From a phage, in assembly GCA_014686905.1 (NCBI GenBank), contig GCA_014686905.1_4093.1: a stretch of 64,000 bases of DNA, one strand, 5' to 3'. This document shows, one piece after another, positions 62,748 to 63,646 of this stretch (within the stretch, counting starts at the first letter, position 1; each line of letters begins with the position of its first letter). The position numbers were made by a program, and so were the translations under genes. The notes under the pieces are model-generated. The model saw only the letters and a program-made list of their open reading frames with translations. It was not told where the DNA came from and searched no databases.

Positions 62748-62776
62748 CTTGACTAAATAGTTCAGTACTGTATAAT
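62748..62776 (+). promoter_or_regulatory. repeated promoter cassette copy 1
   Basis: 23-bp repeat CTTGACTAAATAGTTCAGTACTG then TATAAT (16-nt spacer). Confidence 0.6.
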
Positions 62777-62807
62777 GTTTGTATCTTAACTTATATGGCA
62801 ACTTGAT

Positions 62808-63161
62808 ATGTTTAGTGAATATGAAGAAGCAATAAAACGCAACCTTGAAGATTACAACTTCCAATTTTATATTTGGGATGAACTGATGAGATTGTGTTTA
62901 CAGTGGATGGAAAATGAAGAAACTCCTGACCAACGAACTGTTATATTAAACATTTTGTTACATAAAGATCTTAGTTCAATTAATGTTGAAGTTTCTACTT
63001 ATGTAGAAGAAGATTATAATCCCTATATTTCATATACTTCACCTGTACCAAAGACAGAAGAAGAATATTTTCAAATGAGTACTGTACAAGAACCATTGTT
63101 TACTTATGAGTTCTATAAGTACTTGGTTGGTGAATTCAAAAAAATGCGAATTAATTCTTGA
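62808..63161 (+). CDS. EE-x-F-Q-motif family member
   Basis: TEEEYFQMSTVQEPLFTYEF; preceded by repeated promoter cassette. Confidence 0.45.
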   Translation: MFSEYEEAIKRNLEDYNFQFYIWDELMRLCLQWMENEETPDQRTVILNILLHKDLSSINVEVSTYVEEDYNPYISYTSPVPKTEEEYFQMSTVQEPLFTYEFYKYLVGEFKKMRINS

Positions 63162-63186
63162 CTAAATAGTTCAGTACTGATATAAT
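63157..63186 (+). promoter_or_regulatory. repeated promoter cassette copy 2
   Basis: Identical 23-bp repeat, TTGACT-17-TATAAT. Confidence 0.65.
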
Positions 63187-63237
63187 GAATTCCACAATCA
63201 GACGTATATGGTGTAAGTTACGTATAGTGAGGTTTAT

Positions 63238-63621
63238 GTGATTATTAAAGATTTTTCAAAATATGAAGAGTTTTTAAAATCGTTTTTAAATTCCAATTTA
63301 ACATCAAAAGCTTCTAAAAATGGGAGTGAAGATAATCCTGAAATTAGAATTTTTAATGAAAATGGGGAATCATTTATTATTAATGATAACGAAATTATTT
63401 TTGAATCATTAGAAGTAACAAAAGAAATAAAAAAACTAAAAAAACCATCATTACAAGATATAGTAAATAGTTTGAATTGTGAATACATAACATTCCAGCT
63501 AAGTGCTGATGAAGAAGATGAATTTCAGAAACGCACAGTATATGAAAATGTGTTTCCACATGAATTAAATTCTGTAATATTTGAAGTGTTGGATAAGGTT
63601 TTTTCTGAAAATAGTACTTGA
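63238..63621 (+). CDS. EE-x-F-Q-motif family member
   Basis: ADEEDEFQKRTVYENVF; GTG start after GTGAGG; preceded by promoter cassette. Confidence 0.4.
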   Translation: MIIKDFSKYEEFLKSFLNSNLTSKASKNGSEDNPEIRIFNENGESFIINDNEIIFESLEVTKEIKKLKKPSLQDIVNSLNCEYITFQLSADEEDEFQKRTVYENVFPHELNSVIFEVLDKVFSENST

Positions 63622-63646
63622 CTAAATAGTTCAGTACTGATAAAAT
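63617..63646 (+). promoter_or_regulatory. repeated promoter cassette copy 3 (drives 3' tRNA cluster)
   Basis: Identical 23-bp repeat, TTGACT-17-TAAAAT, 11 nt upstream of tRNA at 63657. Confidence 0.6.

Follow-up and report, generated by a model that had tools for sequence, protein, structure and literature searches.

Repeated sigma-70-type promoter-like cassettes and an iterated AGTACT palindrome in a Rak2-like jumbo coliphage

Three identical copies of a 23-bp cassette, CTTGACTAAATAGTTCAGTACTG, lie on the plus strand of a 64,000-nucleotide stretch of phage DNA (contig GCA_014686905.1_4093.1, hereafter the window), each followed by a -10 hexamer and then by a small open reading frame (ORF) or a cluster of tRNA genes. 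The window derives from the roughly 350-kb genome of a Rak2-like jumbo coliphage (Asteriusvirus) and shares 99.9% identity with the E. coli jumbo phages G17, phAPEC6 and Sharanji, the last of which supplied the complete genome for all genome-wide counts. A mismatch search of the window returned exactly the three exact matches that an earlier note on this sequence had listed, with no fourth match at up to three mismatches (0 expected from shuffles). The whole-genome search for further copies proposed in that note likewise yielded none in Sharanji beyond the same three at up to four mismatches. Each cassette had also been described as leading into a family gene or the tRNA cluster; the tRNA cluster does lie behind copy 3, whereas the two genes behind copies 1 and 2 are unrelated ORFans rather than family members. 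Paralogy of these two ORFs was rejected, as they gave a BLASTP E value of 0.24 and are assigned to separate PHROGs (34619 and 38341). Upstream of copy 1, and not behind the cassettes, lies the MTHEEWM paralogue family (phrog_10970, no assigned function).

The anatomy of the three sites is that of sigma-70-type promoters. The -35 and -10 hexamers assigned earlier stood as claimed, with the spacers given in Table 1; copies 1, 2 and 3 match the consensus hexamers at 11, 11 and 10 of 12 positions, respectively, and are the top three sites in positions 60500-64000, while the -10 hexamer of copy 3 reads TATAAT in phages 121Q and JP4. All three sites are intergenic, with near-consensus hexamers separated by a distance within 16-18 bp, and are co-directional with the downstream gene or RNA, which begins after 31-57 bp in the case of the ORF starts and after 10 bp in the case of the tRNA (copy 3). 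Furthermore, near-consensus sites of the form TTGACW-N15-18-TAnAAT were found 16 times on the plus (coding) strand of the 64-kb window and 0 times on the minus strand. We consider it likely that the three repeats are the -35-plus-spacer part of copies of one strong sigma-70-type early promoter, a reading that includes their membership in a wider promoter class and their role as recombination joints. In such a promoter, host RNA polymerase carrying sigma-70 would recognize TTGACT together with the adjoining -10 hexamer, with the terminal TG of the cassette occupying the extended -10 position in copies 2 and 3. Transcription would then proceed rightward into the two small ORFans and into the tRNA-Ser(ACU)-Met-Asn cluster. 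The usual distance of ~7 nt would place the copy-1 start near A62783, and the predicted starts of copies 2 and 3 fall near 63193 and A63653, the latter 3-4 nt ahead of the first tRNA.

Table 1. Cassettes, promoter elements and downstream genes at the locus (window coordinates).
Feature	Position	Strand	Description
Cassette copy 1	62748-62770	+	C, TTGACT (62749-62754), spacer AAATAGTTC, AGTACTG; exact match
Copy-1 -10 hexamer TATAAT	62771-62776	+	16-bp spacer
Cassette copy 2	63157-63179	+	overlaps stop codon of preceding ORF
Copy-2 -10 hexamer TATAAT	63181-63186	+	17-bp spacer; TG-n extended -10 from the end of AGTACTG
Cassette copy 3	63617-63639	+	exact match
Copy-3 -10 hexamer TAAAAT	63641-63646	+	17-bp spacer; TG-n
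Upstream AGTACT box, copy 3	63613-63618	.	overlaps -35 (AGTAC-TTGACT); 20 bp start-to-start from proximal box
-10-proximal AGTACT box, copy 1	62764-62769	.	one of 3 proximal boxes among the 120 AGTACT sites of the window
-10-proximal AGTACT box, copy 2	63173-63178	.	as above
-10-proximal AGTACT box, copy 3	63633-63638	.	as above
ORF of 117 amino acids behind copy 1	62808-63161	+	phrog_34619, no assigned function
ORF of 127 amino acids (GTG start) behind copy 2	63238-63621	+	phrog_38341, no assigned function; last codons overlap copy 3
tRNA cluster behind copy 3	63657-63922	+	ARAGORN and Rfam
tRNA-Ser(ACU)	63657-63748	+	ARAGORN, Rfam
tRNA-Met(CAU)	63756-63845	+	ARAGORN, Rfam
tRNA-Asn(GUU)	63850-63922	+	ARAGORN, Rfam

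Several observations weigh against a promoter function. Weak promoter-like sites in the region number 19, compared with 19.7 in shuffled sequence, so the case rests on the quality, strand and conservation of the three sites. The TG of copy 1 lies one base off the canonical extended -10 register. Moreover, the copy-1 locus is 97% identical throughout the relatives in a six-phage alignment, and conservation of the cassette there is thus inseparable from that of its flanks. Finally, the literature searched yielded no transcription start data for this phage group, and both promoter activity and its timing are therefore deduced from sequence.

The sigma-70-type early promoters of T4 and T5 provide the natural frame of reference for these elements. 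As in the early promoters of large lytic phages, the hexamers approach TTGACA and TATAAT at 16-17 bp, an A-rich stretch lies upstream, bases beyond the hexamers are conserved, many copies occur in regions of small early genes, and phage tRNA clusters are among the units served. The three cassettes are of an ordinary kind, expected for a large lytic phage. Predictions of RpoD-like promoters exist for phages CBB and GAP32, and in PA5oct such promoters were located close to transcription starts seen by RNA-seq (PMC5259590, PMC7318152). The extra element here, unlike in those promoters, is a palindromic AGTACT box at two fixed positions, which is absent from the published promoters of CBB. Copy 3 carries both boxes, and copies 1 and 2 carry the proximal box alone. 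The surrounding octamer CAGTACTG, which occupies -20 to -13, overlaps core promoter elements.

The cassettes proved to be members of a promoter class that recurs across the genome, of the form TTGACW-N9-AGTACTG-(N0-2)-TATAAT and often with a second AGTACT overlapping the -35 hexamer. Sharanji contains 15 TTGACW-N8-10-AGTACT-N1-3-TAnAAT sites, concentrated in small-gene regions. When sites were anchored on TATAAT, AGTACT began at -7 and -27 in 19 and 20 cases, against 1.1 expected. Peaks at the same two offsets were observed in RaK2 (11 and 8 versus 0.36 expected), Yersinia phage fHe-Yen9-03 (9 and 6 versus 0.26), Erwinia phage Hallingskeid (10 and 6 versus 0.14) and Salmonella phage Munch (10 and 5 versus 0.21), and were not seen in PA5oct, T4 or the Mimasvirus samples (CBB and XbC2), where the sample comprised only 15-17 TATAAT sites. 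The box at -27 shares bases with the -35 hexamer (AGTAC-TTGACA), and the 20-bp separation of the two boxes is the sole enriched inter-site distance. By its sequence, the promoter class is conserved in at least five lineages. In scans of viral contigs, the cassette and the dual-box promoter matched only contigs corresponding to 121Q and RaK2.

Two lines of evidence bear on how the three cassettes came to be identical, for which the earlier note had proposed recent modular duplication as one of two possibilities, and both favor that proposal. First, the nine bases that follow the -35 hexamer, AAATAGTTC, are common to the three cassettes and free to vary in other members of the class, which indicates that the cassettes are copies of one another rather than independent convergences; their identity would have arisen by duplication or conversion from one another. 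Second, the rearrangements seen among relatives, for which we compared the copy-2 and copy-3 loci of 121Q, PBECO4, JP4 and A4, fall exactly at the cassettes. At the copy-2 position, 121Q, PBECO4 and JP4 carry a tandem pair of cassettes, spaced 70 bp apart and enclosing a 9-codon mini-ORF, and the single cassette of the window joins the left flank of the first tandem copy to the right flank of the second. Judged from this alignment, copy 2 of the window is the product of a precise repeat-mediated deletion between tandem cassettes, in which the upstream AGTACT box was also lost. In A4, the -10 module of copy 1 and an inserted tRNA gene come directly after the copy-2 cassette (L019, about 4915-4990), and in JP4 an insertion of an HNH (homing) endonuclease and an extra, duplicated tRNA-Ser adjoins copy 3 on its upstream side (L017, 4876-5710). 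As short dispersed direct repeats, the cassettes also act as recombination substrates, such that the small gene modules between them are deleted, inserted or swapped. The tRNA region as a whole is an insertion hotspot among the relatives.

This arrangement resembles the PeSL elements of T4-type phages (PMC2839356, PMC4122927), in which repeated strong sigma-70 promoter cassettes also lie amid small accessory ORFs in plastic regions; here too, indels and module swaps among close relatives are bounded by the cassettes. Unlike PeSLs, the three cassettes lack a stem-loop or terminator, and the repeat is merely 23 bp long; no terminator-like hairpin was found on the plus strand upstream of any of them. 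They offer base-level examples, in a jumbo phage, of deletions and module exchanges brought about by 23-bp promoter repeats, which extends the PeSL idea past T4-type phages and indicates that a terminator is not required. True composites do exist in these genomes. A hairpin-plus-promoter composite, GGGTTGACTTCGGTCAGCCCTTTTTGCTATAAT, occurs elsewhere in the genome and in relatives, not at the three cassettes. A repeated cassette distinct from the 23-bp one, aaaaGGGTTGACTTCGGTCAGCCCTTTTTGCTATAAT, is present on the Sharanji minus strand at 59690, 61104, 62386 and 73000, as well as in L010, L012 and CBB Torf39; it is built as a GC-rich hairpin with the -35 hexamer inside the stem, followed by a T-run and a -10 hexamer, and is a terminator/promoter of the PeSL type conserved across genera.

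If the promoters are ordinary, the palindrome iterated beyond them is the interesting part. The octamer CAGTACTG occurs 24 times in the window, where 0.66 are expected, and 199 times in the genome; of the hexamer AGTACT, the window has 120 copies and the genome 902, the latter compared with about 100 expected from dinucleotide composition. AGTACT is the lone outlier among palindromic hexamers, the next having an observed-to-expected ratio of 1.56, and is the most frequent hexamer of any kind along one strand. Approximately 80% of the 902 sites lie deep inside genes; coding DNA carries the word in all three frames (372, 146 and 230 in frames 0, 1 and 2, versus 76, 16 and 37 in codon shuffles, a 5-9-fold excess), and the density is twice as high again in intergenic DNA. 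By region, the sites are densest in the small-gene early regions. At the synonymous level, Ser-Thr is written AGT-ACT 373 times where codon usage predicts 109; the Ser-Thr dipeptide is itself in excess, and the other two frames behave likewise. An artefact of codon or dipeptide usage was therefore rejected as the cause, given that the excess extends to every frame and to intergenic DNA and persists at the synonymous level.

The excess is a property of a group of phages. Across the genomes compared, it reached 8-23-fold in JNE01, RaK2, fHe-Yen9-03, Hallingskeid, Munch, XbC2 and CBB and was absent from T4 (7 sites versus 3.6 expected) and PA5oct (2 versus 4.8). Six phages besides this one gave a 12-23-fold excess, and across the Rak2-like phages the over-representation spans 9-23-fold. 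The iterated palindrome appears to be undescribed, in that the word received no mention in the literature searched, a search that did not take in the GAP32 paper. The same genomes otherwise purge palindromes: GCGC is found 0 times against 28 expected in the window and 0 against 179 in the genome, and CCATGG, TGGCCA, GCATGC, CTGCAG, GGTACC, CGTACG, GGATCC, GTCGAC, GAGCTC, CTCGAG, AGGCCT, AGCGCT, TGCGCA, TCCGGA and GCTAGC each have zero copies.

Three further properties describe the sites themselves. Sequence context around the 725 sites that lie deep within genes is two-fold symmetric, AAAnnTTtC-AGTACT-GaAAnnTTT (~24 bp), where positions beyond the core give p values as low as 1e-12. The sites are spaced more evenly than those of any of 41 control words of similar abundance (coefficient of variation 0.82 versus 1.02 +/- 0.04; z = -4.5 against a Poisson expectation), and the largest gap is 2.1 kb compared with a control median of 3.8 kb. 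This evenness does not follow a rule of one site per gene, which was unsupported since 161 genes carry zero sites and 179 are expected to. Lastly, single sites turn over among relatives, 54% being conserved compared with 42% for average hexamers (n = 52), so that site-by-site purifying selection is weak. Apart from the general distribution, Sharanji contains two AGTACT-free islands, at 369-8091 (7.7 kb) and 10530-15908 (5.4 kb), set against a mean gap of 388 bp and a next-largest gap of 2.1 kb. Both consist of arrays of ORFs of ~70 amino acids with almost no sigma-70-like promoters, and they may represent recently acquired or differently handled DNA.

The closest parallel is HIP1, the highly iterated palindrome GCGATCGC of cyanobacteria, for which cognate methyltransferases exist. 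In common with HIP1, AGTACT is a short palindrome over-represented by about an order of magnitude (~10x), a lone outlier, placed in coding DNA in all frames with codon usage overridden, and kept across related genomes. AGTACT differs from HIP1 in being viral and a different word, in taking fixed positions in promoters, and in that no link to a cognate methyltransferase was found.

What might read such a word? We tentatively favor a phage-encoded, two-fold symmetric DNA-binding protein, specific for TTCAGTACTGAA, that reads the ~900 sites genome-wide; we hold this at somewhat less than an even chance, and it extends the promoter reading of the cassettes without replacing it. Symmetry, wide context, even coverage and fixed offsets together fit such a factor best. 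The context at the 725 intragenic sites is symmetric beyond the core, the excess extends over three frames and intergenic DNA, codon and dipeptide choice are bent toward the word, the spacing exceeds all 41 control words in evenness, the sites are densest in small-gene early regions, and the promoter offsets with their 20-bp pairs recur in five lineages. Bound at early promoters, where its sites would lie at -19 to -14 and -40 to -35, the factor would overlap the polymerase footprint and could compete with RNA polymerase, for example in early shut-off. Because AGTACT occupies two fixed early-promoter positions in five lineages, a genome-wide reader could also modulate these promoters, and in this weaker form the operator idea of the earlier note survives; its stronger form, an operator private to the three units, does not, given the 199 octamers in the genome and the AGTACT box that at least 15 other promoters carry in the same register.

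Other observations sit less comfortably with a DNA-binding reader. No candidate protein was identified, in a proteome that was not scanned whole for DNA-binding domains, and the conservation of single sites hardly exceeds that of an average hexamer. In Mimasvirus (CBB and XbC2), the word is 13-fold enriched yet gives no promoter-offset peaks among the 15-17 TATAAT sites, and the RpoD-like promoters published for CBB are without AGTACT. Any promoter role is therefore secondary or lineage-specific, and it seems to have been co-opted from a primary, genome-wide one. Phage proteins that coat or mark a whole viral genome and repress early promoters are exemplified by phi29 p6 and SPO1 TF1; neither reads a discrete 6-bp palindrome, and the analogy is one of mechanism only.

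Put in terms of the clade, AGTACT, or in its extended form TTC-AGTACT-GAA, could be a clade-defining, evenly spread signature site of Rak2-like phages read by a phage-encoded symmetric factor, a proposal that we again advance with less than even confidence. Such a factor might be the type IIA topoisomerase of the phage, a modification enzyme, or a protein with an architectural or global regulatory function. A need for one site every few hundred base pairs would reshape codon and dipeptide usage, and might even account for the phage carrying a tRNA-Ser(ACU) that reads AGU. Several genera would have put the site to a second use at early promoters, as a dual operator that forms a built-in early-to-middle switch. 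A single hexamer over-represented across several genera, with hosts from E. coli to Xanthomonas and in genomes otherwise purged of palindromes, is a signal of the kind usually tied to some major DNA transaction, for example uptake, recombination, repair, segregation or silencing. Identifying its reader would expose a core process of these 350-kb viruses, give a handle on early gene control and provide a simple sequence diagnostic for the clade.

A role as the target of phage DNA modification, such as methylation, is a less probable explanation and one we regard as doubtful. Abundance would here, in analogy to HIP1 and its cognate methyltransferases, be driven or kept by modification-linked repair or marking, and AGTACT in promoters would be either incidental or a means of making them modification-sensitive. 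The word is palindromic, like the sites of Type II methyltransferases, palindrome selection in this genome is intense (GCGC and about 15 six-base palindromes being absent), the phage encodes orphan methyltransferases, and resistance of RaK2 DNA to many restriction enzymes has been reported (PMC3622015). However, RaK2 is reported to be CpG-methylated and AGTACT contains no CpG, and the symmetric A/T tracts, 7-9 bp out from the core, reach further than a methyltransferase site typically does. Neighbors one mismatch away, AGTATT and AATACT among them, show no depletion (ratios 0.87-0.96), which argues against a drive by deamination and repair; with no neighbor clearly depleted, that drive was rejected. 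The orphan C5 cytosine methyltransferase of the window (51525-52385, 286 amino acids) is an unlikely writer of the mark, since it is DNMT3-like with a short recognition domain, looks CpG-type and is widely shared. Its best solved relatives are the catalytic domains of mammalian DNMT3 rather than bacterial Type II enzymes, and the enzyme also occurs in CBB, K64-1, phi92-like phages and many others. A Dam-like enzyme is also encoded (Sharanji gp542).

More improbable still is a direct contact of AGTACTG with RNA polymerase or sigma, in the manner of an elaborated extended -10 or spacer element that a sigma-70-like factor of the phage might read, which would make the cassettes promoters for a phage-modified polymerase. 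The box does stand in a fixed register beside the -10 hexamer, copies 2 and 3 have its terminal TG where an extended -10 would place it, and the phage encodes an RpoD-like sigma factor (Sharanji gp182). Yet the distance to the -10 hexamer shifts by 0-2 bp in RaK2, as it does between copy 1 and copies 2 and 3, CBB also encodes the sigma factor while its published promoters are without the box, and the even spacing and some 750 intragenic sites are left unexplained. We give very little credence to CAGTACTG as a classical operator private to the three units and regulating them in concert: a perfect 8-bp palindrome does lie in the spacer of three identical promoters, as would befit a dedicated repressor, but its sites, far from being confined to regulated promoters, are mostly intragenic, and the same box recurs in promoters of other genera. 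Host SlmA sites, whose reported consensus in E. coli is GTgAGtACTcAC, share AGTACT as their central hexamer and were rejected as the origin of the word; the outer GT/AC flanks are essentially absent here (GT-n-AGTACT-n-AC occurs only twice, and GTG is the most depleted left flank, at 2 versus 21 expected), the preferred flanks being TTC and GAA.

The region leading up to the cassettes contains six small MTHEEWM ORFs (60803-62737), three of them in tight tandem (62251, 62412 and 62573) just before cassette 1. A first tRNA cluster (Ser-Arg, from 62057) has its own TG-n-TATAAT promoter (62019-62056) with a poor -35 hexamer, and an AGTACT at 62051 falls between the -10 hexamer of this cluster and the 5′ end of the tRNA. 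The tRNA-Met(CAU) of the second cluster has a long extra arm and a length of 90 nt, and the 75-nt tRNA-Met that 121Q has in this place does not align with it. The anticodon ACU of the adjacent tRNA-Ser is unusual; it reads AGU, the serine codon within AGT-ACT, which makes up 33% of serine codons here, and the genome is annotated with a tRNA adenosine deaminase. This tRNA may be an adaptation to the codon skew driven by AGTACT.

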